Below are positions 415 through 53,724 of a stretch of 64,000 nt of DNA, in pieces (the first letter of the stretch is position 1; every line of letters starts with the position of its first letter). The notes below the pieces were generated by a model. That model made no database searches. It had not been told where the DNA came from and saw nothing but the letters and a program-made list of their open reading frames with translations. The translations under genes and the position numbers were made by a program. Source of the stretch: Elusimicrobiota bacterium (lineage in GTDB: Bacteria; CG03; SLGR01; JAGXOG01); assembly GCA_051745145.1 (NCBI GenBank), contig JBNJDT010000005.1, positions 1,096 through 65,095 of the forward strand, in the 5' to 3' direction.

Positions 415-423
415 TTAGATTAG

Positions 424-912
<489 letters not shown>

Positions 913-914
913 AA

Positions 915-1517: not shown

Positions 1518-2418
1518 GGACCGGTCGGGTTATCTTTTTCTTATAGGGAAAGTAAGATTTTTGGAAACTCAGATTTTAACTGACGCGGATTTAAATAGAC
1601 TTATTGAGAATAATACGGAGAAAAAACTTGTCAACGACCTTCAGGATACAAAATACGGCAAATATTTGGCTGATTATGATTTCAATGAAGCCCTTGAAAA
1701 ATATATATATAGCTGCTGGCGGGAATTTACCAATAAAATGGAAAATACCTGTATACTAGATTTATTTATGCTGAAAAGAGATGTTTTAAATTTTATAAAT
1801 TTTAAAAAAGATTTTAAAGAAGATAAATTTTTCGCCGGGGGGGTGTATAATTTACAAAGAGAAGAGGATACTGTTTTACCGGGTATATTGAAAAAAGTTG
1901 ATCAAAAACTTAAGAAAAAGTCTCAGGAAAAAGATGAAACTATTCCCGACGGCCTGGTGGAAAAAATTTTTATGGATTTCATAGCAAAAGACTATATTGA
2001 GCCCCTTGAAGGAGGGTTGCTCAAAAACTACTGGAAGGATATGGTGGATATAAATAATTTATTGAAAAATGTTAATCATGAAACACCCCAGGATTACTGG
2101 GCCGGGGGCAATATTGAACAAAGTTTTTGGGAAAAAGTTAAAATAGAGTCTGAAATTCCCCGGAAGTTATCTTCTAAAAAATATATGAAAGCTATTGAAA
2201 GTCAAAAAGATCCCGTAGAATGGGAGTTAAAACTGGAAGAATTTTTGTTAAAATATATTAATTCCATGAGAAAAATAACTTTTGGACCCGAAGCTGCGGT
2301 CGCTCTGCTTTTAAGTCTGTTTACAGAGGCTAAAAATCTTAATATGATAAAAGCGGGCATAAATTTGGAACTGGATAAGAAAGAGATAAGAGATAATCTT
2401 ATTTTAGGTTATGCCTGA
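1507..2418 (+). CDS. atpC: V/A-type ATPase subunit C (V0 d)
   Basis: About 300 aa. The N-terminus (MIEDRSGYLFLIGKVRFLETQIL) matches the start of subunit C/d. The ORF-track start at 1489 is probably too far upstream; the internal ATG at 1507/1510 is the likely start. Overlaps the atpE stop. Confidence 0.7.
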   Translation: MMIEDRSGYLFLIGKVRFLETQILTDADLNRLIENNTEKKLVNDLQDTKYGKYLADYDFNEALEKYIYSCWREFTNKMENTCILDLFMLKRDVLNFINFKKDFKEDKFFAGGVYNLQREEDTVLPGILKKVDQKLKKKSQEKDETIPDGLVEKIFMDFIAKDYIEPLEGGLLKNYWKDMVDINNLLKNVNHETPQDYWAGGNIEQSFWEKVKIESEIPRKLSSKKYMKAIESQKDPVEWELKLEEFLLKYINSMRKITFGPEAAVALLLSLFTEAKNLNMIKAGINLELDKKEIRDNLILGYA

Positions 2419-2725
2419 AGATAAATTTAATATAACAGCACTGGGAAGAAGAGAATTTGTATTACCTTTCGGGGCGGTGGGTTTTAATTATCAAGCCGAA
2501 GAAAAACTGGAAAACGCCATTGAATATATTTTCAAACAGGACTATAAAAGAACACTTTTCATATTAGATGAAGATTTAATTGAAAATATTCAGAAAATTG
2601 AAGAGGCTGAAGAAAGAGGAGCTAATATTCTTATTTTAAAAGCCTGGGGGAAATCTAAATTAGCAAAAAATAAAATAAGACGAGCATCGATAAAGGCAAT
2701 AGGAGCAGATATATTAAAGGAATAA
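2411..2725 (+). CDS. atpF: V/A-type ATPase subunit F
   Basis: 104 aa. Size, operon position and the LGRREFVLPFGAVG motif are typical of subunit F. Confidence 0.75.
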   Translation: MPEDKFNITALGRREFVLPFGAVGFNYQAEEKLENAIEYIFKQDYKRTLFILDEDLIENIQKIEEAEERGANILILKAWGKSKLAKNKIRRASIKAIGADILKE

Positions 2726-2729
2726 TTAT

Positions 2730-4580
2730 ATGAGTAAGGAAAACAAAAAAAGAACTGGGACTATAAAGAGAATCGCCGGCCCCCTTATTGTAGCAGAAGG
2801 TTTAAAAGGGGTAAAGATGAATGAAGTTGTGAGGGTCGGAAAAGAGAAGCTGATCGGAGAGGTTGTGGAATTGAGCAGCGACGGAGTAGCTATACAGGTT
2901 TACGAAGAAACTGCCGGAATAAAGCCCGGCGAACCGGTAACACCTACGGGGGCTCCTCTTTCTGTTGAGCTTGGACCTGGACTAATAAGTTCTATATACG
3001 ATGGAATTCAACGTCCTTTGGATGTGGTTAAAGAAAAAACCGGTGATTTCATAGAACGGGGAGTAGAAATTTACGGCCTGGATCAGAAGAAAAAATGGGA
3101 GTTTTCTCCAAAAGTTAAAAAGGGAGATAAGGTTTCCGCCGGGGATATTATCGGGGAAGTCGAAGAGACTCCTATAATTAATCACCGGATTATGGTACCC
3201 CCGGATGTAGAAGGAGAAGTCAAAAAAATAGAAGACGGAAAGTTTACAGTTAGCGATACTGTAGCGGTTATTAAAGGAGAGAGCAAAGATTACGAGATAT
3301 CTATGAATCAGAACTGGCCTGTCCGTCAAAGAAGACCGTATAAGAATAAAATCCCCCCCAACGAACCGTTAGTCTCCGGGCAGAGAGTTATTGATACATT
3401 TTTCCCCATAGTAAAAGGAGGCGTGGCCTGCATACCGGGTCCCTTCGGAAGCGGCAAGACAGTAATTCAGCAGCAGCTGGCCAAATGGGCGGATGCCGAC
3501 ATAATAGTTTATATCGGCTGCGGTGAAAGGGGAAATGAAATGACTGACGTCTTGCGGGAATTTCCCGAACTTGAGGATCCGTATTCCGGAGAACCTCTGA
3601 TAAAAAGGACTGTTCTTATTGCCAACACTTCTAATATGCCGGTGGCCGCCAGAGAGGCTTCTATATATACCGGTACAACTATAGCGGAATATTACCGGGA
3701 TATGGGTTATAAGGTAGCTCTTATGGCCGATTCGACTTCCCGTTGGGCCGAGGCATTAAGAGAAATGTCTGGTCGTCTGGAAGAAATGCCCGGCGAAGAA
3801 GGGTACCCTGCTTATCTGGCTTCCCGGATTGCCGCGTTTTATGAACGGGGCGGAAGAATGAACTGCCTGGGTGACAGAGAGGGATCACTTTCAATAATAG
3901 GGGCGGTTTCGCCCCCCGGAGGAGATCTTTCGGATCCCGTGGTAAAAAACACTTTAAGAGTGGTTAAAGTGTTCTGGGGGTTAGATGATGATTTGGCTTC
4001 CCAGCGCCACTTTCCGGCAATTCACTGGCTTAATTCTTATTCTCTCTATGTAAATAATATTGAAGAATATCTTACTGAAAATGTGGGAGAAAATTTTTCT
4101 GAATTGAGAGATAAAGCTATATCTATACTTCAGGAAGAAGAGTCTCTTCAGGAAATAGTTAGGTTAGTCGGTGAGGAATCTCTTTCCGACAGGGACCGGC
4201 AGGTTCTGGATACTGCCAAGATGTTGAGAGAGGATTTTCTCCAGCAGCATGCTTTTGACGATGAGGAGACATTCACTGATATTAAAAATCAGTATAGGAT
4301 GTTAAAAGCTATTATGGTTTATCATGAGGCCGCCCTGAAAGTATTAGAGCAGGAGAAAGAGTTTGAAGATATAGTAAACTTAGATGTTAAAAAAGAAATA
4401 GCTAAGATGAAATATATTCAGAAAGAAGATATAGAAAAATTTGACCAGCTTGAAAAAAATATACGGGAACAGTTAGAAAGCGGCGGAGTAGCCGAAGAAG
4501 ACGAATTTTCCGAAAAAGAAAGTGAGCAAGAAGCATACGAAGAAAATGACGAAGAAACTCAAGAAAAGAAGGAAGAGTAA
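2730..4580 (+). CDS. atpA: V/A-type ATPase catalytic subunit A, carrying an acidic C-terminal low-complexity extension
   Basis: Walker [10 protein letters not shown] and the conserved catalytic core ([27 protein letters not shown]). 616 aa ending in an E/D-rich tail. Confidence 0.95.
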
Positions 4581-4585
4581 AAAAT

Positions 4586-6070
4586 ATGAAACAGGAATAT
4601 AAGACAGTTAAGAGTATATCCGGCCCTCTTTTTTATGTGGAGAAAGTAGAAGATGTGGCCTATAATGAGATTGCCACGGTAAAGTTGCCTTCGGGTGAGG
4701 AAAGATTGGGGCAGGTTTTGGAAGTTAATGAAAATACGGTATTATTGCAGCTTTTCGCCGGTACTTCGGGAGCTAATTTAAATAATTCCAGAGTAAAATT
4801 CTTAGGTAAAGAGTTGACCCAGCCGGTTTCAGAGGATATTCAGGGCCGGGTATTTGACGGGATGGGCCGGCCTCAGGACGGCGCCGGAAAAGTTATTGCC
4901 GATGAATATAGAGATATAAACGGGTTGGCTATAAATCCTTCTTCCAGAAGCTATCCCAATGAATTTATTGAAACCGGAATTTCTTCTATAGATGCTATGA
5001 ATACTCTCGTCCGGGGTCAAAAATTACCTATTTTTTCGGGAAGCGGACTCCCTCACAACGAACTTTCCGCTCAGATTGCCCGGCAGGCTAAAGTCAAAGG
5101 TGAGCAGGAGGATTTTTGTGTAGTATTTGCAGCTATGGGTATTACTTATGAGGAAGCCCAGTATTTTAGGGAAGAACTGGAAAAAACCGGTGCTATAGAA
5201 AGATCAGTTATGTTTTTGAATCTTGCCGATGATCCGGCAATTGAACGGTTAGCCACCCCCCGTATGGCTTTAACCGCAGCTGAGTACCTGGCTTTTGAAA
5301 AAGATTATCAAGTTCTGGTATTAATGACGAATATGACTAATTACGCAGAAGCTCTGCGGGAGGTATCGGCGGCCAGAAAAGAGATACCCGGCCGTAGAGG
5401 TTATCCGGGCTATATGTACACTGATCTGGCCAGTATTTATGAAAGAGCAGGTAGGATTCAGGGTAGAAAGGGCTCAATAACCCAGATTCCCATACTTACT
5501 ATGCCTAATGACGATAAAACCCATCCCATCCCTGATTTAACCGGATATATCACAGAAGGACAGATAATATTATCCAGAGAACTTGAGCATAATAATATAT
5601 ATCCCCCTATAGATGTGTTGCCTTCTCTTTCCCGTTTAAAGGAGAAGGGTATAGGAGAGGGAAAGACAAGAGACGACCACTCCGCGGTATCCAGCCAGCT
5701 GTTTGCCGCTTATGCCCGGGGAAAACAGGCCAAAGAGTTAGCTGTAATTTTGGGAGAAGCAGCACTTTCTGAAACAGATAAAAAATTCTCTAATTTTGCT
5801 GATATATATGAGAACAAATATGTAGCCCAGGAAGAATACGAAGACAGGGATATTGAGGAAAGTCTGGATCTGGCCTGGGATCTTCTTAAAAATCTGCCCA
5901 AAGAAGAATTAAAGAGAGTAAAAGAAGAACAAATTAAAAAATATATGGAAGGTTCTTCAAAAAAAGAGACCAAAGAGAAAAAAGAAGATAAAGTGGAAAA
6001 AGAAAAGCCTGAACAAAAAAGAAAAAATGGCCCAGAAGAAAAAGGGGATACCAAAAAAGATAAAGAATAA
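4586..6070 (+). CDS. atpB: V/A-type ATPase regulatory subunit B, carrying a K/E-rich C-terminal extension
   Basis: Conserved B-subunit core ([40 protein letters not shown]). 494 aa, with the last ~70 aa K/E-rich. Confidence 0.95.
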
Positions 6071-6072
6071 AT

Positions 6073-6699
6073 ATGGCTAACGTATTAAATGTAAATCCCA
6101 ACAGGATGGAGCTGATGAAGCTCCGAGATCGCCTGTCGCTTGCCCGCCGCGGTCACCGGCTTTTAAAAGATAAACAGGATGACTTGATGAAACGGTTTAC
6201 TGAAACAACTGAAAAGGTGCGGGAATTGCGGTCAAAAATAGAAGATCAGTACGATTCCTTAAAAATACCGTATTTAATAATAAGGTCGGTCAGTGAAGAT
6301 CGTGGTTTTATCTCTTATTGTAAAAAAGCTTTAATAAAAGCGGATATATGGGGCGTTAGAAAGCATCTTATGAATTTGGTGGTCCCGAAAATTAAAGTTG
6401 AATTTGAAGATAATACCCAGAATGCAGGAAATCTCAATGTATCTTCACTTTTACCGGGGTTTATTAAAAAATTTTTAAATCTTACCCGGGATGTAGTTAA
6501 ATTGGGCAATGAAGAAAAAAAGATGTATTTGCTTGCTGAAGAGTTAGAAAAAGTACGAAGAAGGGTGAATGCGCTGGAATATATATTTATTCCCAAGTTA
6601 GAGGAAACCGTAGATTACATATCCATGCAGTTAGAAGAATTAGAAAGAGAAAATATTACCAGGTTGATGAAAATAAAAGATATTGTTCGAGACCGTTAA
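6073..6699 (+). CDS. atpD: V/A-type ATPase subunit D (central stalk)
   Basis: 208 aa. N-terminus (NRMELMKLRDRLSLARRGHRLLKDKQD) is typical of subunit D. Last gene of the ATPase block. Confidence 0.85.
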   Translation: MANVLNVNPNRMELMKLRDRLSLARRGHRLLKDKQDDLMKRFTETTEKVRELRSKIEDQYDSLKIPYLIIRSVSEDRGFISYCKKALIKADIWGVRKHLMNLVVPKIKVEFEDNTQNAGNLNVSSLLPGFIKKFLNLTRDVVKLGNEEKKMYLLAEELEKVRRRVNALEYIFIPKLEETVDYISMQLEELERENITRLMKIKDIVRDR

Positions 6700-7997
6700 T
6701 GGGCTTGATTTACGAAAATATTTTTCTTTTTATTTATATATTTACTTTTTCTTTACTCATAACCAGTTTAATATTATATATTGAAGAAAGAAGCAGACGG
6801 TCAGAACTAAAATCCCGTCTTAAACAGGTTCGAAAGAAAAGTGACGGTTATATTAAAGATCTAAATAACCTCATCACAATGCTTACCAATCTCCAGGAAA
6901 TAGAAATGTCATATACCAAAATGGATGATTTGGAAAAGCTGTGCAATCTCATTGTAGAATATGCTACGAATATCCTGCAGACAGAAACAGGCTCTCTTAT
7001 GTTAGTCGATAAAACTACCAATAAATTAAAAATTGTCGCATCCAGGGGTTTAAGCCGGGAAATTGTAGAAAGCACAGAGATGGATATAGGAGAGGGAATT
7101 GCCGGGAGAGTAGCCGAAAAAGGGAATCCTATATACTGTTCGGATATCGAAAAAGATGTTAGATTTATGCGTAGCTCTAAAGTCCACTATGTATCCAAAT
7201 CTTTCATTGCCGTTCCCTTAAAAGTAAAAGATAAGGTCATAGGGGTATTGAACGTTAATAGCAAAGAAAAAAATAATCATTTCGGAGAAAAGGATAAGAG
7301 GTTAATTAATATTCTGGCCGACCAGGCGGCCGCCGCAATTGAAAATATTAATCTATACCGGGATATGAAAGATATGTATATAGGTACTATTAAAACTTTG
7401 GCCGAAGCCATAGATGCCAAAGACCCGTATACCAGGGGCCATGCGGAGAGAGTAACGAAATATTCAGTAGCCATAGCCAAAGAGATGGATTTAGATAAAA
7501 AGTTATTGAGAAATATTGAATTTGCGGCTCTTATTCACGATATAGGTAAGATAGGTATAAAAGACAATATCTTATTTAAACCCGGGAAACTTACTGATTC
7601 AGAGTACGAAAAAATCCAACAACATCCTAAAATAGGGGAGCAGATAATATCCCCTGTAGAATTTCTTATTAATGTAGCTCCCCTTGTTTTATACCATCAC
7701 GAATATTATAACGGCCAGGGCTATCCGGAGGGGCTTAAAGGAAAAGAGATCCCCATAGGGGCCCGGATATTAACAGTCGCCGACTCTTTTGAGGCAATGA
7801 TTTCTGACAGACCCTATAAAAAAGGTTTTTCTATAGAGGAAGCTGTGGAGGAATTAAAGTCGTGTAAAGGCGAACAATTCGACCCTGAGGTGGTAGAGGC
7901 GTTTTTAAAAGTACTTGAAAGAGATGGAGAAAATATATCTAACGAGATTAGAGAATTCAATGAAAAAAACAGAACCAAACTGGGTAATTTATTATAA
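6699..7997 (+). CDS. Membrane-anchored GAF-domain HD-GYP phosphodiesterase (likely c-di-GMP)
   Basis: N-terminal TM segment, a GAF-like middle region, and an HD-GYP catalytic domain (HAERV, IHDIGKIGI, HHEYYNGQGYPEGL). Its start overlaps the atpD stop by 1 nt. Confidence 0.85.
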   Translation: MGLIYENIFLFIYIFTFSLLITSLILYIEERSRRSELKSRLKQVRKKSDGYIKDLNNLITMLTNLQEIEMSYTKMDDLEKLCNLIVEYATNILQTETGSLMLVDKTTNKLKIVASRGLSREIVESTEMDIGEGIAGRVAEKGNPIYCSDIEKDVRFMRSSKVHYVSKSFIAVPLKVKDKVIGVLNVNSKEKNNHFGEKDKRLINILADQAAAAIENINLYRDMKDMYIGTIKTLAEAIDAKDPYTRGHAERVTKYSVAIAKEMDLDKKLLRNIEFAALIHDIGKIGIKDNILFKPGKLTDSEYEKIQQHPKIGEQIISPVEFLINVAPLVLYHHEYYNGQGYPEGLKGKEIPIGARILTVADSFEAMISDRPYKKGFSIEEAVEELKSCKGEQFDPEVVEAFLKVLERDGENISNEIREFNEKNRTKLGNLL

Positions 7998-8706
7998 AGA
8001 TTTTATAAAAAACGAGATTGCCTCATCCGGGCGAACCGGAGGAGTTGTAGGGGTATCCGGAGGTATCGATTCTGCTGTGTGTCTCTATTTAACTAATAAA
8101 GCTGTGGGAAAAGATAATACTCATCCGGTTTTTTTGCCCCACCGGAAAAACTCGGAAGATATCAAAAAAAAGGCAGTTAAAATTGTCGAAAAATTAAATT
8201 TAAAGTTAAAAATATATGATTTGAGGAAAATAATAGAAAATTTTAAAAATGAGACAGGTTGTGCAGATAAAATGCAGATAGGTAATTTTGCGGCTAGAGT
8301 TAGAACTGCTTTTCTTTATCAGGAAGCAGCTAGGACGGACTCTCTTGTTATAAATACAAGTAACCGCACTGAATCAATGACCGGATATTTTACTAAATGG
8401 GGAGATGAGGGAGGGGATGTGAGTCCCCTGGGAAATCTATATAAGAAAGATGTTTACGATTTGGCAACACAGGTCGGAGTACCGGAGGATATAATTAAAT
8501 CGCCGCCTTCCGCCGGGTTTTACTCGAGTCAAAATGACGAAGATGAACTGGGTCTAGATTATAAAACTTTAGACAGGGTGTTAATGAAAATAGATGGGGG
8601 CAAAGAGGAAGAGATTGCCTCCGGACTGTTGAATAAAGTTAAAAAACTTATAGATAACTCGGCTCATAAAAGAGATAAACCGGTTACGGCTCCAAGGATA
8701 AATTAA
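7960..8706 (+). CDS. nadE: NH3-dependent NAD+ synthetase
   Basis: PP-loop GVSGGIDSAV plus NadE-like downstream motifs (FTKWGDEGGD, LYKKDVYDLA). The ORF track opens at a TTG at 7915; ATG at 7924 or 7960 is more plausible. The 5' end overlaps the HD-GYP gene. Confidence 0.8.
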   Translation: MKKTEPNWVIYYKDFIKNEIASSGRTGGVVGVSGGIDSAVCLYLTNKAVGKDNTHPVFLPHRKNSEDIKKKAVKIVEKLNLKLKIYDLRKIIENFKNETGCADKMQIGNFAARVRTAFLYQEAARTDSLVINTSNRTESMTGYFTKWGDEGGDVSPLGNLYKKDVYDLATQVGVPEDIIKSPPSAGFYSSQNDEDELGLDYKTLDRVLMKIDGGKEEEIASGLLNKVKKLIDNSAHKRDKPVTAPRIN

Positions 8707-8712
8707 TAAAAG

Positions 8713-9396
8713 ATGGGAACGGGAACTCTATATCTTTTAGCAACTCCCATAGGGCATCTGGAAGATATAACTCTCCGGGCCTTAAAAGTTTTAAAGTCCG
8801 TAAACTTAATTTTATGCGAGGATACCCGTACTACTAAAAAATTACTGGACAGATATAATATTAAAAAGAAGCAGCGGTCCTATTATTCTCCCCGGGAGTA
8901 TGAGCAGGCTGAAAGATATTTGAATTTACTGGAAAAAGGAAAGGATATTGCCCTTGTTTCGGAAAGCGGAACTCCGTGTGTTTCGGACCCGGGTTTAGAA
9001 ATAGTTGACCGGGCCCTTTCAAAAAATATGGATGTTAAACCTGTACCCGGTCCCTCGGCTTTAACTGCGGCAGTTAGTGTTTCGGGGATAAAAGCTGATG
9101 AATTATTATTTACGGGCTTTATTTCCCGTCAAAAGGGAAAAAGAAAGAGATATCTGGAAAAACATATGTCGAAAAGTTATGCAATGCTTATTTATGAATC
9201 TAAACATCGCATTAAAGATACCCTTAAATTTATAAAAGAAATTGATCCGGATCGGACAGTATTTATAGGCCGGGAAATGACCAAGAAATTTGAAGAGTAT
9301 TTAAGAGGACCGGCATTGAAAATATATGATAATATAAATAATAGAGAAAATTTAAGAGGGGAATTTGTAATTCTATGCTCCGGTGCGAAAATGTAA
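8713..9396 (+). CDS. rsmI: 16S rRNA (cytidine1402-2'-O)-methyltransferase
   Basis: N-terminus LYLLATPIGHLEDITLRALKVLKSVNLILCEDTRTT is the RsmI/tetrapyrrole-methylase-fold signature. 227 aa. Confidence 0.85.
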   Translation: MGTGTLYLLATPIGHLEDITLRALKVLKSVNLILCEDTRTTKKLLDRYNIKKKQRSYYSPREYEQAERYLNLLEKGKDIALVSESGTPCVSDPGLEIVDRALSKNMDVKPVPGPSALTAAVSVSGIKADELLFTGFISRQKGKRKRYLEKHMSKSYAMLIYESKHRIKDTLKFIKEIDPDRTVFIGREMTKKFEEYLRGPALKIYDNINNRENLRGEFVILCSGAKM

Positions 9397-9953
9397 AATA
9401 TACTACATCCCCGCCCCGGCAAGTAGAGGTATTTAAAAATTTAGATTTTAAGATAGAAAAAGGCGAAAACACGGTTATTTACGGTGATAATGGGTCGGGC
9501 AAGTCAACTCTGCTTAAACTACTTCTGGGTATTGAAAAACCGGATAGAGGAGAAATCGCTGACGAACAATCCGCCGTTGCGGTTTTTGAAGATATAGAGG
9601 AACAGATACTGTTTTCAACAGTTAGAGAGGAATTGAAATCATCCGATACCTTTGATAATAATCAGATTATGAGTATATTAAAATTAAGACCGCTTAGAAC
9701 CCGAAGCACACTTGAGCTTTCTTTTACCGAAAAGTCGCGTTTAGTTTTTTTTACGGCCTGGCAGACGGGCAAACATTTTATGCTTGTTGATACACCGGTA
9801 GATGATGATTTAATAAATAAATGTATAAAATATTTAACCAGGAATAAAAAGAGAACTGTGGTCCTTTTTTTACCGGTAGAAGAAAAAAGAAGTTTTACAA
9901 ATTCCTGGCAAAAATTTTATATTGATAATAAGAGGATAAATATTGCAAATTAA
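9375..9953 (+). CDS. Minimal ABC-type ATPase-like protein, 192 aa, with degenerate catalytic motifs
   Basis: Walker A GDNGSGKST. Signature-like LSFTEKSRL. Walker B FMLVDTPVDD (no catalytic Glu). No H-loop His. Overlaps the rsmI stop and the next gene. Confidence 0.6.
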   Translation: MLRCENVKYTTSPPRQVEVFKNLDFKIEKGENTVIYGDNGSGKSTLLKLLLGIEKPDRGEIADEQSAVAVFEDIEEQILFSTVREELKSSDTFDNNQIMSILKLRPLRTRSTLELSFTEKSRLVFFTAWQTGKHFMLVDTPVDDDLINKCIKYLTRNKKRTVVLFLPVEEKRSFTNSWQKFYIDNKRINIAN

Positions 9954-10563
9954 TAATTTAAAAGTTAAACGTGAAACGTACCGGGGCAGTAGGATAATAT
10001 TTGATAACTTAAATTTGAAAACCAAGGCCCGGATAAATGTTATATTTGGGCCGCCGGGAACGGGTAAATCAACCTTGCTGGAAGTTATTGCCGGAGTACT
10101 GGAACCGGTGCAGGGTAAGGCGGAAGGTTTTAATTCAAAGAACCACCAGTTTCTTATGCAGGTTCCCGAAAGACAGTTTATATACGGAAGCTGCAGGGCG
10201 GAATTGGAAAAAAAGTGTAAGAATCCCAGGGAAGCACTTACCCGTTTTGGACTTCCTGAAGATATAATGGAGCTATCCCCGTGGAGTTTGAGCAAGGGAC
10301 AGAGAAAAAAACTTTTGCTGGCCGGATTTATAACAGGAAAATCCGGGAATGAGAATTTTATTCTGGATGATCCTTTTAAAGATCTTGATAAAAAAGGTAT
10401 TAATTTAGTGGTAGAAGAATTTTTTAGACCCCGGGCCAACAAAGTAATTATGGCCACCGCCAGCAGAAGAGAATTGCAATACTTGAAGACAAAAGGTATA
10501 AAATCTGATATAATAAATATAAAAGCAATAAAGAACCGAAAATATAAAAATGAGCTGGCTTAA
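9943..10563 (+). CDS. Minimal ABC-type ATPase-like protein, 206 aa, with degenerate catalytic motifs
   Basis: Walker A GPPGTGKST. Q-loop-like QVPERQ. Signature-like LSKGQRKKL. Walker B ILDDPF (Glu replaced by Asp). No H-loop His. Overlaps both neighbours. Confidence 0.6.
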   Translation: MQINNLKVKRETYRGSRIIFDNLNLKTKARINVIFGPPGTGKSTLLEVIAGVLEPVQGKAEGFNSKNHQFLMQVPERQFIYGSCRAELEKKCKNPREALTRFGLPEDIMELSPWSLSKGQRKKLLLAGFITGKSGNENFILDDPFKDLDKKGINLVVEEFFRPRANKVIMATASRRELQYLKTKGIKSDIINIKAIKNRKYKNELA

Positions 10564-12886
10564 AAAAGTAATAAACATTAAGTTATTTTATAAATTTCTC
10601 ATTATTCTGCTGCTCCTTTCCGTAGTGCCAGTAGTTATAGTGGGGTTGAGATTAATAGAAATTAATAGAAGAGGACTGCAGGATGTAATCCTTGAGCTTC
10701 ACACCGAACAGGCTACTTCAATTTCTGATAATGTAGATTCCTATGTAAAAAATTTACAGGAAAGGATAAGATTTATCATAGCCTCACACGGGGAACCGCC
10801 TATAAATTGGACCCTTACCCGTAGAATGCTGAGATCTATGATATCCTCCAGCGAGGAAATTCTGACCGTGAGTACGGTGAATTCTGATGGAAGAGAATTA
10901 ACTAAAGTTTTTCATCCCGATCTTGAAGGAAAAGTAAAACTTGTAAATAGAGCCCAGGATTCCACTTTTAACTCTGCCAAGGAAAGCGGGGAATTCGAAG
11001 TCAGTAAAGTTTATTATAAAGATGGGACCCCCCGAATAAATTCCGTATATCCGTTTACCGACAATATGTATCTGTATATTGAGTCTTCTCTTATGGAGTT
11101 ACTTGAAGAAGTCAAAAATACAACGATAGGGCAGACCGGGTATGCTTATATTGTAGATAAAAACGGAAAAATAGTTATGCATCCGGATTCGAATATGCTG
11201 GAAAAGTCCATTTCCGACAGACCCATTGTTCAGGAAGTTCTTTCGAGAAAATTAATCGGAAGTAAAGAGTATACAACTGAAGATAATAAGGAAATGGTGG
11301 GATCTTATGCTCCTATTCCTGCTTTTGAATGGGGGGTTATTGTCGAGCAGGATAAAGAAGAGGCTTATCTGTCAGTTTCAAGAATGCGCAACAATGCTTT
11401 AGTTTTATTGATTATTGTAATATTTATAGCTGGCGTTGCCGGTTATTTTTTGGCTCAGAATTTATCAAAACCGATTTTAAAACTTACAGAAGCATCCCGA
11501 AGTATAGCGTCTGGCAATTTTGAAGTCACATCTTTATCCAAGTGGCTTAAAAAAGTAAAAGTTAAAGATGAATTAGTTGAGCTGGCATCTACTTTTATAG
11601 TTATGACCCAGCAGTTAAAAAGATATAATGATATGCAGGCTGAAAAGTTAGATGCTATTCTTTTTTCCATAATGGATGGAATAATAATGACAGATTCTTC
11701 AGGTGAAATTCAGCTTACCAACCCCCGGACAAAAAAATTGCTTGATATCGATTTAGAACAGAATTTAGAAGGAATGGATATTAAAAATGTAATAGAACGT
11801 CCGGAAATTGCAGAAAGTTTAGAGGAAGTGGAAGACGAGGAGAAAGAACATATAGTTAAAGAAATGGATTTATCTGAAGGAGAAGATTTGAAATTTTTAC
11901 GGACTGACACTTCAATTGTGGTTCACTCGGATTCCGGTACCCGTATGGGTCTGGTTATGGTAATAAGGGATATAACTTTAGAGAAAGAATTAGAACAGTT
12001 AAAAGACGACTTCATACATTCTATAACTCATGATTTAAGGAGCCCTATGACTTCCATCAGGGGATTTTTGGAATTTTTACTTGATGAAACTGCCGGTGAA
12101 ATAAACGATCAGCAGAGAGAATTTTTAGAAATTATAGATAATTCTTCCCAGCGACTTTTAAATATGATAAATAATATTTTGGATATTGCCAAAATGGAAA
12201 CGGGAACTATGCCCATGGATGTCAGTTCAGTAAATGTTAGTGAGATAGTGGATGATGTAATAAAATCATTATCTTCACAGTCAAAAAAAGACAAGGTAGA
12301 GTTAAAAAAGAAAGAATTAAATGAAATTCCGAAGCAGCTAATTGCGGATGAGGGACTGCTTCAAAGAGCTATAATTAATCTGGTCAGCAATTCCCTAAAA
12401 TTTACTCCTGAAGGCGGGTCAGTTACAGTAAAACTGGAAGATATGGAAGAATATTTAAAAGTATCTGTCGAAGATACAGGCGAAGGAATGCCCGAAGAGT
12501 ACGTGGATAAGATATTTGATCGTTTTGAACAGGTAAAAGGCAGCGAAGGCAAACGCAAAGGAACCGGATTGGGACTTACCATAACAAAATATATTATTGA
12601 AGCTCACGAAGGAGAAATTTGGGCAGAGTCGGAACTGGGCGTGGGCTCGGAATTTATATTTAAGATATCTAAAAATCTGGAAGAAGAAAGTGAGGAAGAA
12701 GAATCAACCGGTGATGAGGAAGAAACTCAGGGGAAATTACCGGAAGATTCTGGATCCGGCAGCAAGGAAAAAAGCGAAAAAGATAGTTCCGGAGAAATTG
12801 AAGAAAAACCTCAAGAAGAACATTCCGAAAATAATAGTAAAACAGATTCTCCCGATAACAAAGAAGAAAATAAAAACTCAGATTAA
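10550..12886 (+). CDS. Sensor histidine kinase: 2 TM segments, periplasmic Cache-like domain, HAMP, PAS, HisKA, HATPase, and an acidic low-complexity tail
   Basis: TM segments near residues 12-35 and 290-312. PAS-like MDGIIMTDSSGEIQL. H-box ITHDLRSPMTSIRGF. G-boxes GTGLGLTITK and GVGSEFIF. 80-aa E/D/S-rich C-terminus. No response regulator nearby. Confidence 0.85.
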   Translation: MSWLKKVINIKLFYKFLIILLLLSVVPVVIVGLRLIEINRRGLQDVILELHTEQATSISDNVDSYVKNLQERIRFIIASHGEPPINWTLTRRMLRSMISSSEEILTVSTVNSDGRELTKVFHPDLEGKVKLVNRAQDSTFNSAKESGEFEVSKVYYKDGTPRINSVYPFTDNMYLYIESSLMELLEEVKNTTIGQTGYAYIVDKNGKIVMHPDSNMLEKSISDRPIVQEVLSRKLIGSKEYTTEDNKEMVGSYAPIPAFEWGVIVEQDKEEAYLSVSRMRNNALVLLIIVIFIAGVAGYFLAQNLSKPILKLTEASRSIASGNFEVTSLSKWLKKVKVKDELVELASTFIVMTQQLKRYNDMQAEKLDAILFSIMDGIIMTDSSGEIQLTNPRTKKLLDIDLEQNLEGMDIKNVIERPEIAESLEEVEDEEKEHIVKEMDLSEGEDLKFLRTDTSIVVHSDSGTRMGLVMVIRDITLEKELEQLKDDFIHSITHDLRSPMTSIRGFLEFLLDETAGEINDQQREFLEIIDNSSQRLLNMINNILDIAKMETGTMPMDVSSVNVSEIVDDVIKSLSSQSKKDKVELKKKELNEIPKQLIADEGLLQRAIINLVSNSLKFTPEGGSVTVKLEDMEEYLKVSVEDTGEGMPEEYVDKIFDRFEQVKGSEGKRKGTGLGLTITKYIIEAHEGEIWAESELGVGSEFIFKISKNLEEESEEEESTGDEEETQGKLPEDSGSGSKEKSEKDSSGEIEEKPQEEHSENNSKTDSPDNKEENKNSD

Positions 12887-12931
12887 AAATTTTTAAAGAT
12901 TTTAGATATGCTGATTAATTCCTGCCTGTAT

Positions 12932-13867
12932 CTATTTTTGAAGTATCTTTTTAAAGTAAGCGATAGTATTTTTTAATCCCTCATCAAGAGGAGTAGTTGG
13001 ATGCCAGTCCAGGATCTCTTGGGCTATAGTTATATCCGGCTGTCGGACCTGGGGATCGTTTTTAGGCAGTTTTTCATTAGTGATAGAACTGTTTGAACCG
13101 GTTATCCGGAGAACTATTTGGGCAAATTTATTTATAGTCATCTCTTTCGGATTCCCGATATTTACCGGTTTGTTATAGTCTGCCTGCATAAGTTTATAGA
13201 TCCCCCGGACAGTATCTTTTACGTAGCAGAAGCTTCTGGTCTGAGTTCCGTCTCCGTATACGGTAAGGGCATCTCCCTGCAGGGCCTGGCTTAAAAAATT
13301 AGGTACCACCCGTCCGTCACCGATTTTCATTCTGGGGCCGTAAGAATTGAATATCCGGGCTATCCGGGTATCCAGCCCGTGAGATCGGTGATAAGCCATG
13401 GTTATTGCTTCCCCAAATCTTTTGGCCTCATCATATACCCCCCTGGGTCCTACGGTATTTACGTGCCCCCAATAATCTTCTTTCTGGGGATGTTCCTGAG
13501 GATCCCCGTAAACTTCAGAAGATGAAGCTAAAAGGTATCTGGCTCCTTTTTCTTTAGCCAGTCCCAGGGTCTTGTGAGCTCCTAGAGATCCCACTTTTAA
13601 GGTTTTAATGGGAAGTTTTAAGTAGTCAACCGGTGATGCCGGACATGCAAAATGCAGTACCCAGTCAATATCTCCAGGCAGGTAGATATAATTAGTGACA
13701 TCGTGTTCGATGAACTTAAATTTTTTTTCCATGGCCAGATGGGAAATATTATCAGTATTACCGGTTATTAGGTTATCCATACCTATAACCCGGTGACCTT
13801 TTTCAAGCAGGTAATCGGCCAGATGGGAACCTAAGAACCCGGATACGCCGGTTACTACTATGTTCAT
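12932..13867 (-). CDS. uxs: UDP-glucuronate decarboxylase (UDP-xylose synthase)
   Basis: Strong similarity to UXS across its full length: [11 protein letters not shown] Rossmann motif, [36 protein letters not shown], and the [13 protein letters not shown] catalytic region. Confidence 0.88.
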
Positions 13868-15165
13868 CTTCCCACCCCTGAATACCGGATACCTTTTTTA
13901 TGCATTAGATCCGGATCAAAAATATTTCTACCGTCAACAATAGTCGGCGGGTCAATAAGTTTGTCTTTTATCTTTTCTATATTCATATTTTTTATTTCAT
14001 CCCACCCGGTGAGAATAAGCAAAAGTTCACAGTCCTGTGCCGTTTCGTAAATATTATCACAGTAGTTAACTGCTCCGGGCAGTATTCTCTGGGCATTCTT
14101 CACTGCCTGTGGGTCATAAGCATTTACAGATGCATTTTCTCTGACGAGTTGCTTTATAATATCAATTGAGGGCGCATTGCGCATATCGTCTGTTTCAGGT
14201 TTAAAAGCTAGCCCCAGAACTCCTACTTTTTTGTTACTTAAATTCCAGAGATTTTCTCTGATTTTTTCCATAATAAGTGCTTTCTGGTTTTCATTTATTT
14301 TTTGTACTTCCTTTAGCATATTAAAATCATAACCCAGATTTTCAGATATTCTTATGAAAGCGGATAGATCTTTTGGGAAGCAGCTTCCCCCAAACCCTAC
14401 ACCGGCTTCCAAAAACTGATTTCCAATTCTCTTATCTAGTCCCATTCCCCGGGCGACTTCTTTGACATCGGCGTTTGTTTTTTCGCAGATATTGGCTACA
14501 GCGTTAATGTATGATATTTTCATTGCCAGAAATGAGTTAGAAGCATGTTTTATAAGTTCAGCGCTTGCAATATTGGTAGTTAAAATATCTGTTTTTTCAG
14601 CTAACGGTTCATAGAGTTTAAGCATTTTTTCTTTTGCCTTTTGACTTTCAATTCCGATTACTATCCTATCCGGGTTTAAGAAATCGTCTACCGCTTTACC
14701 TTCTCTTAGGAATTCCGGATTGGAGGCTACATCGTATTCCACTCCTTCGCCGGCATATTTTTCTATAGTTCTTTTTATCCATTTCCCTGTTTCTACCGGC
14801 ACAGTACTTTTAGATACAATAATCCGGTAATCGGTCATATATTCGGCAATTTCTCGAGAAACGTCTTCCACATAACACAGATTTGCCGAGCCGTCCGGCA
14901 ACGGTGGAGTGTGAACGGCCACAAAAATTATTTCACTTGTATCAATGCCTTCTTCTATACTTGTACTAAAAGAAAGCTTGTTTTTCTCTACATTTTTGCG
15001 AACCAGTTCTTCTAAACCCGGCTCGTATATCGGAATCTGATTGTTTTTTAAAGTTTTTATTTTTTTTGCATTATTGTCGATACATATTACCTGATGTCCC
15101 AATTCCGCCAGACAAGTTCCGGTAACTAATCCTACATACCCAGTTCCTACTATTGCTACTTTCAT
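13864..15165 (-). CDS. ugd: UDP-glucose 6-dehydrogenase
   Basis: N-terminal [24 protein letters not shown], catalytic Cys region [10 protein letters not shown], 433 aa. Overlaps uxs and queF. Confidence 0.9.
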
Positions 15166-15590
15166 TTATTTTCACCTTTCTCTTTAATATATACGGTATC
15201 TACATTTATTGTAATCCCCCCCCGGGCTTTAAAATTTCCGGTTACTTCTACTTTTCGGGGATCACAGACCTCAGCTACATCTTCTTTTATCTTATTAATA
15301 ATTTCTTCCGCAAATCCCTTATAATTTCTATATGAAAACAGATATAATTTTAGAGATTTGCTTTCTATACATTTTTTTTCAGGAATATATTTAATAGTAA
15401 TCGCGGCAAAATCAGGCTGTTCGGTTACCGGACACAGGGAAGTGAATTCCTCAGTTTTAAATTCTATAGTATACGAGTTTTTGGGAGAAGGATTTTTAAA
15501 TGTCTCCAGCTGGGCCTCGGCAGGGTTTGCGGGATATTTAGTTTCTCCCCGGTTTAAAATATTTAAGTTCTCTTTATTTTTATTGTTCAT
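15162..15590 (-). CDS. queF: NADPH-dependent 7-cyano-7-deazaguanine reductase (unimodular type)
   Basis: QueF motifs: catalytic Cys region EFTSLCPVTEQPDFA and the E(S)KS-LKLYL preQ0-binding motif. 142 aa. Confidence 0.85.
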   Translation of the reverse strand: MNNKNKENLNILNRGETKYPANPAEAQLETFKNPSPKNSYTIEFKTEEFTSLCPVTEQPDFAAITIKYIPEKKCIESKSLKLYLFSYRNYKGFAEEIINKIKEDVAEVCDPRKVEVTGNFKARGGITINVDTVYIKEKGENK

Positions 15591-16233
15591 TGATTTTTTC
15601 TTCTCTAAAGCCTTTTTCTCTTATCTTACAACTGGGACATTTACCGCATGCAGATCCGTCTGGAAGCGGATTGTAGCAAGATGAAGTTAAATCCAGATTA
15701 ATTCCCAGTTGTTTGCCTTTAGATATAATCTTAGATTTTTTCATATTAAGAAGCGGAGCTTTTATTTTTATATTCGTAGAATCTCGTGTAGCTAAGTTAG
15801 CAGTTTGCTCGAAATTTTGTAAGAAATCTCTGCGACAATCCGGATAGCCGGAAAAATCTCTTACGTTGGCGCCTATAAAAATAGAATAGGCCTCTTCAAT
15901 TTCTGCCAGACTGACGGCTACGGATAAAAAAATGAGATTTCTTCCGGGCACGTAAGTAGAGGGAATCCCCGTAGTCTCTTCCTCTGGTATTTTCCAGTCA
16001 GTAGTTAAAGCGGAACCGCCGAATTTACTTAGATTTATTTTAAGTATTTTGTGTTTTTTGACATTTTGAGACCGGACTATTTGTTTAGCTGCTTTTATCT
16101 CGTAACTACTGCGTTGACCGTAATCTATGGTTAAGGCCATAACAGAGAAGCCATTTTTTTGAGCTATACCAAGACATACGGCAGAATCCAGCCCGCCGCT
16201 TAAAAGTACTATGCATTTTTTAGTATTATTCAT
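15580..16233 (-). CDS. queC: 7-cyano-7-deazaguanine synthase
   Basis: PP-loop LLSGGLDSAV and the C-terminal Zn-binding cysteine cluster (SSCYN...DGSACGKCPSC). Confidence 0.9.
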   Translation of the reverse strand: MNNTKKCIVLLSGGLDSAVCLGIAQKNGFSVMALTIDYGQRSSYEIKAAKQIVRSQNVKKHKILKINLSKFGGSALTTDWKIPEEETTGIPSTYVPGRNLIFLSVAVSLAEIEEAYSIFIGANVRDFSGYPDCRRDFLQNFEQTANLATRDSTNIKIKAPLLNMKKSKIISKGKQLGINLDLTSSCYNPLPDGSACGKCPSCKIREKGFREEKINEQ

Positions 16234-16853
16234 TTTAACTTGTAAATTCTGTGTATATTCGGTTGTATCCGACCTTGCTGAAAGTATTTTTTTAAAAGCC
16301 GGAGTAACTTCCGAAATCCTATGCCTTCTTTTACCGGAGAAAATAGAAATTCACCGACTTGAATATCTTTTATGTTTTTTATAAAGTCAACAGCCCAGAA
16401 AAAATCTTCTTTATTCTTAATTACAAATTTAATTTCATCTTTCTGTTTCAAAAAATTTAAATTTAATAAATTGTTTTTATCAGTCTCTTTAGAAGAAGGA
16501 GTTTTTAAATCCATCACTATTTTAACTTTTTCCGGGATATATTTTATTAACTTAGAACCGTTAGTTTCAAGAACTACGCGGTATTTTGCTTGTATTAAAT
16601 CTTTTAGTAATTCCAGACAGTTTTCCTGCAAAAGAGGTTCACCACCGGTTATTACTACCAGCGAGCAATTAAACTCATTAATTTTTTTTAAAATTTTACT
16701 GCGGGACATATTTTTTCCACCAGATCGGGCATAAGAAGTATCACACCACGTACAATTTAAATTACACCCACTTAACCTTACAAATACAGCGGGCTTACCC
16801 ACTAATGAAGTTTCTCCCTGGACAGAGTAAAATATTTCACTTATATTTAGCAC
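16230..16853 (-). CDS. queE: 7-carboxy-7-deazaguanine synthase (radical SAM)
   Basis: CNLNCTWCDT cluster-binding motif close to the N-terminus, 207 aa. Sits between queD and queC. Confidence 0.85.
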   Translation of the reverse strand: MLNISEIFYSVQGETSLVGKPAVFVRLSGCNLNCTWCDTSYARSGGKNMSRSKILKKINEFNCSLVVITGGEPLLQENCLELLKDLIQAKYRVVLETNGSKLIKYIPEKVKIVMDLKTPSSKETDKNNLLNLNFLKQKDEIKFVIKNKEDFFWAVDFIKNIKDIQVGEFLFSPVKEGIGFRKLLRLLKKYFQQGRIQPNIHRIYKLK

Positions 16854-16855
16854 AG

Positions 16856-17233
16856 TTAATTATCAGAAATTTCTTTGCTATATGTTGCACAGTAATTATC
16901 AGTTTCAAATACTTTTACGCTGGTAACAGGTACATTTTCAGCAGAAACTTTTTCAAAAATATATTTAGCAATATTTTCGGAACTGGGGTTATTCTCCCTG
17001 AAATATTCCAGCTTATTTAAATTTTTGTGATCCAGTTTTTCAAGAATGGCTTCAGTCATCTTTTTAAGTTTCCTGAAATCGAATGCCATACCATTTTTAT
17101 TTAAACTTTTAAACCCAGCGGTTACTTTGACTTTCCAGTTATGCCCGTGATTATTTTCGCAATTTCCGTTATAATTTCTCAGCCGGTGAGCGGCGGAGAA
17201 AAAAGTTTTTACAGTAATATAATACATTACCAC
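16856..17233 (-). CDS. queD: 6-carboxy-5,6,7,8-tetrahydropterin synthase
   Basis: 125 aa, with the FSAAHRL...HGHNW motif typical of the QueD/PTPS family. First gene of the minus-strand operon. Confidence 0.85.
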   Translation of the reverse strand: MVMYYITVKTFFSAAHRLRNYNGNCENNHGHNWKVKVTAGFKSLNKNGMAFDFRKLKKMTEAILEKLDHKNLNKLEYFRENNPSSENIAKYIFEKVSAENVPVTSVKVFETDNYCATYSKEISDN

Positions 17234-17310
17234 ATTCTATCAAATTACGGTTATTTTTCAACTTTGGATATTAAGGGTCTAATTAAGTGTTTAATACGGT
17301 ATTTAGTTGA

Positions 17311-17346
17311 CACTCCTTTTGAAGTTTGTTATTTTAAAAATCTATT
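17311..17346 (+). promoter_or_regulatory. Candidate sigma70-type promoter for the 17373 gene, in the divergent intergenic region shared with queD
   Basis: TTGACA, a 17-nt spacer, then TGtTATTTT (extended -10-like). AAGGAG Shine-Dalgarno at 17361-17366. Confidence 0.3.
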
Positions 17347-17372
17347 GACAGAACTCTATAAAAAGGAGACAA

Positions 17373-18122
17373 ATGAAAATTGTAAGGTTAATAGTTTTAT
17401 TTTTGCTTTTTACTGTAAGCGGGTTAATTAATCCGGTCTATTCTTCCATTAAAAGTATGGGAAGGGGCTATTTTATTTCCGGTTTTAATACAATTGATAT
17501 GGATGTTTTAAATAACGCTTTGGAATCTAATAATAAAGATTACCCTCAATTTTCAGATAATTTTGTTACAATTGGCGGTGCCGGATACGGGATGGAGAAA
17601 AGATTGATCCTGGGGGGAGAAGGTTTTGCCTTGACCGGCGAAGAAAAACAAAAAGTCCTAAATGGTAAAAGTTATACTACTTCTTTATCCGGTGGGTACG
17701 GTTTTTTTGATATAGGTTTTTTATTATATCCGTCAAAAAAGGTTAACATATATCCGATGATTGGAGTTGGAGGCGGAGGATTGAGTTTTAAAATTACCGG
17801 AGAGGAAACTGAATCTTTTAATAGTATTTTAAATGAACCTGGAAAGAGTGTGAACATGAAAACCGGTGGGTTTTTACTTAATATTTCGATAGCGGCTGAT
17901 TATTTAATTATTTTAGGAGAAGATAAACCGGGTGATTCAAAGCACAGCGGTCTGGCTTTGGGAGTACGTGGAGGATATATATATGATCCTTATCCTGGTG
18001 ATTGGACGGCTGATGATATTGCCGGGATAAAAGAAGGTCCAAATCTGGAAATAACAGGACCGTATATTCAGTTAATGTTGGGTGGAGGAACGGTTACAGA
18101 TACTAAAGATAATTATAATTAA
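17373..18122 (+). CDS. Secreted Gly-rich hypothetical protein (possible small outer-membrane beta-barrel)
   Basis: N-terminal signal peptide (MKIVRLIVLFLLFTVSGLINPVYS). Gly-rich, with alternating hydrophobic patterns and a C-terminal aromatic-rich stretch. Good Shine-Dalgarno. Confidence 0.5.
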   Translation: MKIVRLIVLFLLFTVSGLINPVYSSIKSMGRGYFISGFNTIDMDVLNNALESNNKDYPQFSDNFVTIGGAGYGMEKRLILGGEGFALTGEEKQKVLNGKSYTTSLSGGYGFFDIGFLLYPSKKVNIYPMIGVGGGGLSFKITGEETESFNSILNEPGKSVNMKTGGFLLNISIAADYLIILGEDKPGDSKHSGLALGVRGGYIYDPYPGDWTADDIAGIKEGPNLEITGPYIQLMLGGGTVTDTKDNYN

Positions 18123-29792: not shown

Positions 29793-29868
29793 TTACAAAA
29801 GGCAAAAATTTTGTAATGCCGGAAACTGGTTATAGGATATCTATTACGGAAAGTTTTTGGGAAAAGTT

Positions 29869-42483: not shown

Positions 42484-42628
42484 TTTTTTGAATAGCTGTT
42501 ATAATTTTATATAATACTATAAAATATAAGGAATTGAATTTTTGCTCAATTCAAAAGCAGCAGGTGCCGCTGAAAAAGTTAGAGTAACTATCCCTTATAT
42601 ATATAAATTTTGAGGTAATAAAAGTTTA

Positions 42629-42660
42629 GCCCGCTTGAAAAAAAATCAAGCGGTTTTTTT
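42629..42660 (+). terminator. Rho-independent terminator after antiporter copy 1
   Basis: GCCCGCTTGA-AAAAAAA-TCAAGCGG hairpin followed by a T7 run. Confidence 0.7.
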
Positions 42661-42664
42661 ACGG

Positions 42665-53713: not shown

Positions 53714-53724
53714 ATTAACAGGAT

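Follow-up and report, generated by a model that had tools for sequence, protein, structure and literature searches.

A reduced, catalytically degenerate pair of ECF-like ABC ATPases encoded next to a Cache sensor histidine kinase in Elusimicrobiota

To our knowledge, the nucleotide-binding domains (NBDs) of ATP-binding cassette (ABC) proteins are nearly always hydrolysing motors, and doubly degenerate dimers without a membrane domain are very rare. Two consecutive genes, here called ABC1 and ABC2, encode a candidate for such a dimer in a stretch of 64,000 nucleotides from an Elusimicrobiota bacterium (GenBank assembly GCA_051745145.1, contig JBNJDT010000005.1, positions 1,096 to 65,095 of the forward strand), which is referred to as the window and whose own numbering is used throughout. 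The closest described relatives are the A components of energy-coupling factor (ECF) transporters, EcfA1/EcfA2 (4hlu, 4zir, 4huq, 8bms) and CbiO (5x3x, 4mki), which gave the best single-domain sequence and structure matches and have, like the pair, a Q-helix, an acidic groove residue and a basic residue after the signature motif; in group II ECF modules two different NBD genes stand side by side, as they do here. The ECF A components, however, are about 270–290 aa long, have a C-terminal domain and are accompanied by EcfT, whereas ABC1 and ABC2 measure 192 and 206 aa, are followed by a histidine kinase gene and, in comparison, lack the catalytic Glu and the H-loop His; a Q-loop Gln, a signature and a D-loop have also been lost, one of each. 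Plants and cyanobacteria have stand-alone ECF-type A proteins (ABCI10/ABCI11, PMC6828968) that are likewise short and devoid of the C-terminal helices, and ABCI11 has an imperfect Q-helix, like ABC1.

From the functional side, the closest precedent is given by the Bce modules (BceAB-BceRS; PDB 8g4c, PMC10314905), in which an ABC ATPase complex is coupled to a histidine kinase and the genes are clustered. In these signalling modules it is the BceB permease that touches the kinase, BceA works as a competent homodimer, and BceS senses within the membrane and has no extracytoplasmic domain; by contrast, the block studied here has no permease, its NBDs are degenerate and its kinase carries a large dCache sensor. 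ABC-F proteins (EttA, Uup, PoxtA) and ABCE1 resemble the pair in the absence of a membrane domain and in the short beta subdomain, and are non-transport proteins, but they are single polypeptides with a linker/arm or an iron-sulphur domain, canonical motifs and no Q-helix. In TAP1, TM287/288 and NBD1 of the ABCC proteins (CFTR, SUR, MRP1, YCF1) the Walker B Glu is changed to Asp or Ser and the His is missing, with stable ATP binding and regulation. CFTR and YCF1 NBD1 were among the PDB matches of ABC2, whose LDDPF string resembles the ABCC NBD1 motif. On the other hand, these proteins keep one consensus hydrolytic site and have fused transmembrane domains, whereas ABC1 and ABC2 are free-standing and would have two non-canonical sites.

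The pair lies between rsmI and the kinase gene, as follows:

8713–9396, forward strand: rsmI, 16S rRNA C1402 2'-O-methyltransferase (NCBIfam TIGR00096, 225.5 bits against a cutoff of 167.9).
9375–9953, forward strand: ABC1, a 192-aa, heavily degenerate ECF-A-type NBD; ATG start, 22-nt overlap with rsmI.
9943–10563, forward strand: ABC2, a 206-aa EcfA2-like NBD; TTG start, 11-nt overlap with ABC1.
10550–12886, forward strand: sensor histidine kinase of 778 aa; 14-nt overlap with ABC2.

The earlier note on this DNA had pointed to the overlaps that join these four genes, and we confirmed them from the list of open reading frames (ORFs) and from the sequence, all the genes being co-directional. 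The start codons of ABC1 and ABC2 are supported because the homologues start at the same residues; moreover, the Shine-Dalgarno sequence AAGAGGA lies 6 nt upstream of the TTG of ABC2.

Both products are small NBDs, and the Walker A, signature and Walker B strings quoted in that note were all present where it had placed them. We aligned both families with canonical NBDs, and then the 12 distinct ABC1 and the 21 ABC2 sequences. ABC1 passes the gathering threshold of Pfam ABC_tran (PF00005, 63.7 bits against a cutoff of 25), and its AlphaFold2 model shows an NBD fold with a predicted local distance difference test score (pLDDT) of 85.9. Its motifs are:

9483–9509, forward strand: Walker A GDNGSGKST, residues 37–45, intact; G-NG-GK-T invariant in 12/12 orthologues.
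9585–9608, forward strand: Q-loop with its Gln changed to Glu72, then DIEEQI, which resembles a Q-helix; F71, E72 and Q77 invariant.
9717–9731, forward strand: signature LSFTE, residues 115–119, with both glycines lost; family pattern LS[FY][STF][QE].
9777–9794, forward strand: Walker B FMLVDT, residues 135–140; Asp139 kept and invariant, catalytic Glu changed to Thr.
9864–9875, forward strand: H-loop position LFLP, with Pro167 in place of His; Pro in 12/12, Ser in a further representative (P0221).

Across the ABC1 family the position of the catalytic Glu is occupied by Ser, Thr, Gly, Ala or Cys, and the alignment with canonical NBDs revealed a 6-residue deletion just downstream of Walker B, at the D-loop. 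The losses of ABC1 comprise, in all, the Q-loop Gln, both signature glycines, the catalytic Glu, the D-loop and the H-loop His. That the Glu was missing or replaced in the pair and the His absent had been noticed before and held true; the replacement at Glu72 and the D-loop deletion come in addition, and the degeneracy is wider than first described.

ABC2 scored 43.6 bits with Pfam ABC_tran, against the same cutoff of 25, and its AlphaFold2 model (pLDDT 90.1) likewise has the NBD fold. It shows the following motifs:

10048–10074, forward strand: Walker A GPPGTGKST, residues 36–44; G41, K42 and T44 invariant in 21 sequences.
10159–10179, forward strand: Q-loop Gln73 and a complete Q-helix VPERQF; Q73, P75, E76 and F79 invariant.
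10288–10302, forward strand: signature LSKGQ, residues 116–120, near-canonical; L116, S117 and G119 invariant, family pattern LS[KRNS]G[EQ].
10357–10389, forward strand: Walker B FILDDP, residues 139–144, with Asp143 in place of Glu, and D-loop KDLD.
10450–10464, forward strand: H-loop position MATAS, with Ala173 in place of His; Ala, Ser, Asn or Gly across the family.

Here D142, D143, F145, D147 and D149 are invariant in 21/21 sequences. As a baseline we used 185 NBDs from outside the two families, retrieved by the same searches: the Walker B Glu was found in 184/185, the H-loop His in 179/185, the second signature Gly in 185/185 and the Q-loop Gln in 165 of the 171 that could be aligned. 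The set of features of a catalytically competent NBD (LSGGQ, Glu, His and Gln) is not found in ABC1, and ABC2 keeps only Gln73 and the near-canonical LSKGQ. In a head-to-tail dimer, site 1, formed by the P-loop of ABC1 and the signature of ABC2, would have no catalytic base, no His and no Q-loop Gln, and site 2, formed by the P-loop of ABC2 and the signature of ABC1, would combine Asp for Glu, a missing His and a signature devoid of glycine; that is, both composite sites of the assumed heterodimer are non-canonical.

These changes of the catalytic motifs are fixed in all the relatives found, 12/12 for ABC1 and 21/21 for ABC2. At the same time, ABC1 and ABC2 are the fastest-evolving part of the block in which they lie, with 35–61% identity to the window, compared with 52–75% for RsmI, 55–78% for the kinase and 79–96% for the V-ATPase B subunit in operons of the same type. 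Since the replacement residues are invariant despite this fast divergence, we conclude that the altered state is under selection and is not the outcome of decay.

As far as can be read from the sequences, both ABC1 and ABC2 derive from A components of ECF transporters, and the Q-helix motif is the strongest evidence for this. The placement had been proposed for testing, among others, and turned out to be the best one, by the Q-helix and by EcfA2 being the best PDB and NCBIfam match. The motif X-P-D/E-X-Q-phi after the Q-loop has been described as specific to ECF A components (PMC6828968). In ABC2 it is found in full and invariant (Q73-V-P-E-R-Q-F79); ABC1 has E72-D-I-E-E-Q-I, with the Pro lost, and in one ABC1 orthologue (locus L009; related loci are named by our own L numbers) the string VFENPDDQIF equals the canonical VFQNPDDQIF with a single Q to E change. 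The acidic residue of the EcfT-docking groove, which in ECF A components binds the Arg of the EcfT coupling helix, lies at Q-helix +11 and is invariant in both proteins (E86 in ABC1, E87 in ABC2), its place being given by alignment offset from the Q-helix acid and not by a structure. A basic residue at signature +3, the partner of the Q-helix acid in ECF A components, is also present, as the invariant R122 in ABC1 and as K or R, always, at position 123 of ABC2.

Among PDB sequences, the best single-domain matches of ABC2 were EcfA2 (4mki_B, 66 bits) and TM_0222 (64 bits), the best EttA domain reaching 39 bits, and the L009 ABC1 matched CbiO (3gfo) in one stretch with 47 bits versus 33 bits for PoxtA NBD2. 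In Foldseek searches of the PDB the top 7 matches of ABC2 were all ECF A subunits, with target-normalised TM-scores of only 0.45–0.56 for the ECF A chains, and ABC1 retrieved generic NBDs, with CbiO at ranks 2–3. ECF_ATPase_2 leads the NCBIfam models for ABC2, matching 15 of the 21 members (a count tied with ccmA) with a best E-value of 8.3e-23; no NCBIfam model reached its cutoff for any ABC1 or ABC2 member, and TIGR04520 and TIGR04521, whose cutoffs are 315 and 330 bits, gave scores of 46.6 and 56.1. The nearest outgroups (P0120–P0122, and the twin-NBD protein P0224) are ECF-type NBDs with LSGGQ or LSGGE, DEP, and TH or SH; because they are canonical, the degenerate state is a derived one. 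The C-terminal helical dimerisation domain of group II is absent from both proteins, the alignment stopping 40–80 residues before the ends of the canonical references. Moreover, an A1-like gene, an A2-like gene and a membrane protein gene follow each other as in ecfA1-ecfA2-ecfT operons, the kinase standing where T would be; orthology of ABC1 with A1 and of ABC2 with A2 is weakly supported.

Other placements were considered and rejected. ABC-F proteins head the whole-sequence profile hidden Markov model (HMM) lists, but these scores are inflated because they sum two NBDs, and per domain the ECF/CbiO matches are equal or better; in fact, ABC1 and ABC2 are separate ORFs in different frames, with no linker, and their matches cover single ABC-F NBDs only, also when ABCE1 is considered. 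For ABC1, FtsE, LolD, MacB and CcmA were discarded, the Foldseek matches being generic NBDs with indistinguishable E-values. PADLOC matches to defence-system ATPases were confined to the P-loop region and did not exceed 35 bits.

The pair is a tiny family restricted to an Elusimicrobiota clade. In an HMMER scan of 1.84 billion cluster representatives the ABC1 profile recovered 10 single-NBD clusters (50% identity) at E ≤ 7e-44, after which came twin-NBD proteins with scores summing two domains. The ABC2 profile search gave 21 members, beyond which the E-values jumped from 1e-39 to 8e-19, and word-indexed searches gave 7 relatives of ABC1 and 6 of ABC2, followed by E-value gaps of about 25–30 orders of magnitude. 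In the latter searches the window itself was matched by an Elusimicrobiota metagenome-assembled genome of NCBI with 100% identity. In the GTDB species set the family was present in 8 species genomes. Every named carrier is labelled Elusimicrobia/Elusimicrobiota or unclassified, the single exception being a 7.7-kb contig that was binned as Deltaproteobacteria (locus L013), a label that is probably due to mis-binning. Besides the assembly of the window, carriers of the block include GCA_964476445.1, GCA_023660015.1, GCA_016934855.1, GCA_043813605.1, GCA_001577815.1 and GCA_012511615.1. A metagenome scan with the ABC1 profile, using a Walker A pattern, yielded no true family member among the matches listed.

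To compare the related loci, the supplied annotation was used together with our own HMM annotation of all of them. The invariant block runs through the V-ATPase genes, GAF-HD-GYP, (NadE), RsmI, ABC1, ABC2 and the Cache kinase, and in the window it includes, upstream of rsmI:

6699–7997, forward strand: membrane-anchored GAF-HD-GYP protein (Pfam HD_5, GAF_2), first gene of the conserved block.

The HD-GYP gene was found in all the loci that extend far enough to include its position, ABC1, ABC2 and the kinase are contiguous in every locus, and rsmI overlaps ABC1 in most of them. In L013 the upstream part (1–700) holds the 3' end of a wecB-like gene and a stop-ridden remnant of the C-terminal part of rsmI, before intact genes for ABC1, ABC2, the histidine kinase, a LysM/Ig protein and a response regulator. 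Since only there the upstream context breaks, L013 is the only case that separates the linkage of the pair to the kinase from its linkage to rsmI. Apart from this locus, the linkage of the pair to the kinase is not separable from plain synteny inertia.

The kinase has the domains dCache_1, HAMP, PAS, HisKA and HATPase_c (Pfam), and hydropathy places a first transmembrane helix at residues 12–33, a periplasmic dCache_1 domain of about 250 aa and a second transmembrane helix at 283–302. In an alignment of 9 orthologues, His494 of the HisKA domain and the H, N and G boxes were intact. The connector of the HAMP domain is about 5 residues longer than usual and contains a basic S-x-W-L-x-K-V-K-x-K-D-E-L in 9/9 orthologues; the insert (WLKKVKxKDE) falls at kinase residues of about 318–337, window positions 11500–11560. 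The earlier note had assigned Cache, HAMP and PAS domains to this kinase, correctly, and had singled out an acidic tail of 80 aa as unusual. The tail exists, but it is about 68 aa long (residues 711–778, window positions 12680–12886), rich in E, S and K, of low complexity and lineage-specific, and a similar one is found on the V-ATPase B subunit of the same genome; we do not regard it as a distinctive feature.

The V-ATPase B tail (window positions 5950–6070) is about 40 aa long and K/E-rich, giving a protein of 494 aa versus 455 in relatives. On the kinase the tail is shorter in L001 and slight or absent in the remaining relatives. Tails occur in the same two lineages that have no LysM/Ig and regulator genes downstream.

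In most relatives the kinase gene is followed by genes for a secreted LysM/FecR-like/Ig-repeat (Glucodextran_B) protein and for a two-receiver protein of 261–305 aa. The latter, of pseudoreceiver-receiver type and without an output domain, is found 1–2 genes downstream of the kinase in L003, L004, L007, L008, L009, L011, L013 and L019; in L004 (neighbourhood 11413–14164) the phospho-acceptor Asp of the first receiver is replaced by Asn. The LysM/Ig protein (L004, L007, L008, L009, L013, L019) measures 465–644 aa and has a LysM-like N-terminus, 1–3 Glucodextran_B/Ig repeats and a FecR-like region, recognised by eye; L011 keeps the regulator and has no LysM/Ig gene. Both genes are lacking in the window and in its 61%-identical relative (L001/L012), in which a convergent epimerase/UDP-glucose dehydrogenase/queuosine cluster follows the kinase. 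Pfam scans of all real ORFs with 120 aa or more found no receiver domain in the 64 kb, and tblastn with the relatives' regulator, LysM/Ig protein, deaminase and 149-aa neighbour gave no match in the window at E ≤ 1e-3. The description of the kinase as an orphan holds, therefore, for the window, in which there is no receiver, but not for most relatives, in which the regulator lies downstream: the kinase is locally an orphan in the lineage of the window and L001, and not ancestrally.

In LH_S2, an Elusimicrobia bacterium (L003 9197–11343, the same as L016 10617–12763), the kinase is split into a Cache-only ORF of 263 aa and a HAMP-PAS-kinase ORF of 415 aa, about 100 nt apart; the sensor may be genuinely split, or the gene may be frameshifted or a pseudogene.

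We suggest that, in a clade of Elusimicrobiota, a pair of EcfA1/EcfA2 type may have been stripped to its RecA-like and helical core, with the beta subdomain shortened and both nucleotide sites made catalytically incompetent. ABC1 and ABC2 would form a head-to-tail heterodimer that closes on ATP, hydrolysing it very slowly or not at all, and that would work as a nucleotide-occupancy switch rather than as a motor. Since the Q-helix, the groove acid and the basic residue after the signature are retained, the pair probably still clamps a helical element of a partner. It could then be an ATP-dependent accessory of a two-component system, modulating the output of the kinase, and the ancestral system would have consisted of the kinase, the LysM/Ig periplasmic protein and the pseudoreceiver-receiver regulator. 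We favour this explanation as a whole, an ECF-derived and non-hydrolysing pair serving the kinase system, tentatively and at somewhat less than an even chance; the kinase as the partner is our best guess, and an uncertain one. The regulatory module envisaged in the earlier note fits with the degenerate catalytic motifs, with the selection acting on them and with the lack of a local transporter partner; its regulatory function is an inference. A more specific version, quite unlikely as it stands, is that the kinase replaces EcfT, the acidic grooves (E86 of ABC1, E87 of ABC2) clamping a cytoplasmic helical element of the kinase dimer and ATP occupancy of the two non-hydrolytic sites gating the kinase/phosphatase output, which would amount to a two-component sensor regulated by ABC NBDs and free of any permease; as a speculation, the WLKKVKxKDE insert is a candidate for the element that meets the grooves.

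Whatever the partner, the locus presents an ECF ATPase pair reduced to its core, under selection and with the docking groove intact, within a two-component signalling operon. Regulation of the kinase by the pair, if it takes place, would link the nucleotide state of the cell to a transmembrane sensor in a new way, with a motor recycled as a switch and a logic comparable to that of the eukaryotic proteins SUR or CFTR. Should the partner be an unlinked EcfT instead, the pair would be the most reduced ECF energiser known, and the question would arise of how transport is powered. The current annotation reads only 'ATP-binding cassette domain-containing protein', and the clade is an uncultured one, which limits the breadth of these considerations.

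Several points weigh against the pair being an accessory of the kinase. The synteny spans rsmI, nadE, HD-GYP and V-ATPase genes, and the adjacency of the kinase may be inherited gene order in a narrow clade; L013, on the other hand, is a single 7.7-kb contig of a metagenome-assembled genome, in which the break may be a true rearrangement or may come from a chimeric assembly. As a rule, the stop and start codons of neighbouring genes overlap in this genome, and such an overlap is no specific signal: about 24 of some 40 co-directional junctions in the window overlap, and the translational coupling put forward earlier, although the overlaps are real, is no evidence of a functional link. The retained EcfT-docking groove would fit equally an unlinked EcfT-like partner, and a BioY gene lies 18 kb away. 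Some ATPase activity can persist when the catalytic Glu is changed to Asp, as in E to D variants and in the degenerate sites of ABCC proteins and TAP1. Finally, our literature searches gave no precedent of NBDs docking directly on a histidine kinase, nor anything relevant to ECF systems in Elusimicrobia or to the combination of a histidine kinase with degenerate or orphan ABC ATPases.

As for transcription units, promoter-like sites in positions 1–18000 numbered 67, modestly above the 49.4 ± 8.0 obtained by shuffling, and terminator-like sites 19 versus 16.8 ± 3.3; since these counts are near the shuffle expectation, operon boundaries are not assignable from them.

Among the alternatives, an unlikely one is that the pair still energises an ECF-type transporter, with T and S components encoded elsewhere (for example BioY, 28710–29234), ABC2 hydrolysing slowly through Asp143 and ABC1 contributing a purely structural degenerate site. 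This would agree with the Q-helix and the EcfT-docking groove residues conserved in both proteins, and with two adjacent and distinct A-type genes as in group II modules; besides, one degenerate site does not prevent many heterodimeric ABC systems from working. Here, however, both sites are non-canonical, and the better of them, site 2, has neither Glu nor His and faces a signature without glycine; the C-terminal dimerisation helices, which group II requires, are also missing. A solitary BioY, the S component of biotin ECF systems, is indeed present in the window without BioMN; it lies 18 kb downstream of the pair, between PHP-domain and DUF456 genes, with no BioM, BioN or EcfT nearby. That no permease or substrate-binding gene stands near the pair, as the earlier note had observed, was confirmed at the locus, and Pfam listings contained no EcfT/CbiQ, S component or permease within about 8–10 kb in 8 related loci. 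Pfam scans of the 64-kb window also gave no EcfT/CbiQ, and the absence of CbiQ/EcfT within 8–10 kb extends to about ten lineages, whereas ecfT normally follows ecfA1-ecfA2. Moreover, a family of 10 clusters among 1.84 billion representatives, confined to a tiny clade, does not resemble a housekeeping vitamin uptake system.

We likewise regard as improbable that ABC1 and ABC2 are a soluble ATP-binding pair unrelated to the kinase and held next to it by frozen gene order, with, for instance, a role on the ribosome or on rRNA together with RsmI, in the style of ABC-F or ABCE1. The overlap of rsmI with ABC1 in most loci and the synteny of the whole block from V-ATPase to kinase could be read in this way, yet in L013 rsmI is only a remnant and the pair is still accompanied by the kinase. 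The pair has no transmembrane partner, and ABC-F proteins head the whole-sequence HMM matches to the PDB for both profiles, and those to NCBIfam for ABC1; these are the two-domain sums mentioned above, which per domain the ECF/CbiO matches equal or exceed. A P-site tRNA interaction motif (PtIM) linker or an arm for ribosome binding is missing, as are the canonical catalytic residues of ABC-F, and the ECF Q-helix is not an ABC-F feature.

The last alternative, that the ORFs are non-functional, either fragments of one frameshifted ABC ATPase, as the earlier note had asked to consider, or decaying pseudogenes, could invoke the small size, the lost catalytic residues and the fastest evolution in the block, but is effectively refuted, and the frameshift is excluded, since each ORF has its own full NBD motif set, correctly ordered from Walker A through the Q-loop region and the signature to Walker B, both genes are intact as a two-gene layout in about ten lineages at 35–43% identity with E72, P167, D143 and QVPERQF invariant, and the AlphaFold2 models are confident, complete NBD folds.

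Further ABC systems are encoded in the window, each with its own canonical NBD or NBDs:

25526: MsbA-like ABC system, own canonical NBD.
29857–33432: Opp ABC system, own canonical NBDs.
44765–47376: FecCD-type ABC system, own canonical NBD.
60812–63421: FtsE/FtsX/M23 cluster, own canonical NBD.

Three minor observations concern other parts of the window. At 23448–24737 an LpxC-FabZ-like fusion, of LpxC and a FabA-like dehydratase, is part of an outer-membrane biogenesis cluster BamA-Skp-LpxD-LpxC/FabZ-LpxA-MsbA. In 40814–44550 a pair of genes for a CBS-domain protein and a Na+/H+ exchanger occurs twice in tandem (40817–42483 and 42884–44550); a 300-nt copy is 100% identical, the spacing is 2067 nt and the Pfam scores are identical or nearly so, which could reflect a very recent duplication or an assembly artefact. 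Finally, 49553–58584 contains two giant ORFs of 1386 and 1619 aa without Pfam match, with a GC content of 0.33–0.36 and an AT skew of +0.41 to +0.46, flanked by genes for a TonB-dependent receptor and a TPR protein.

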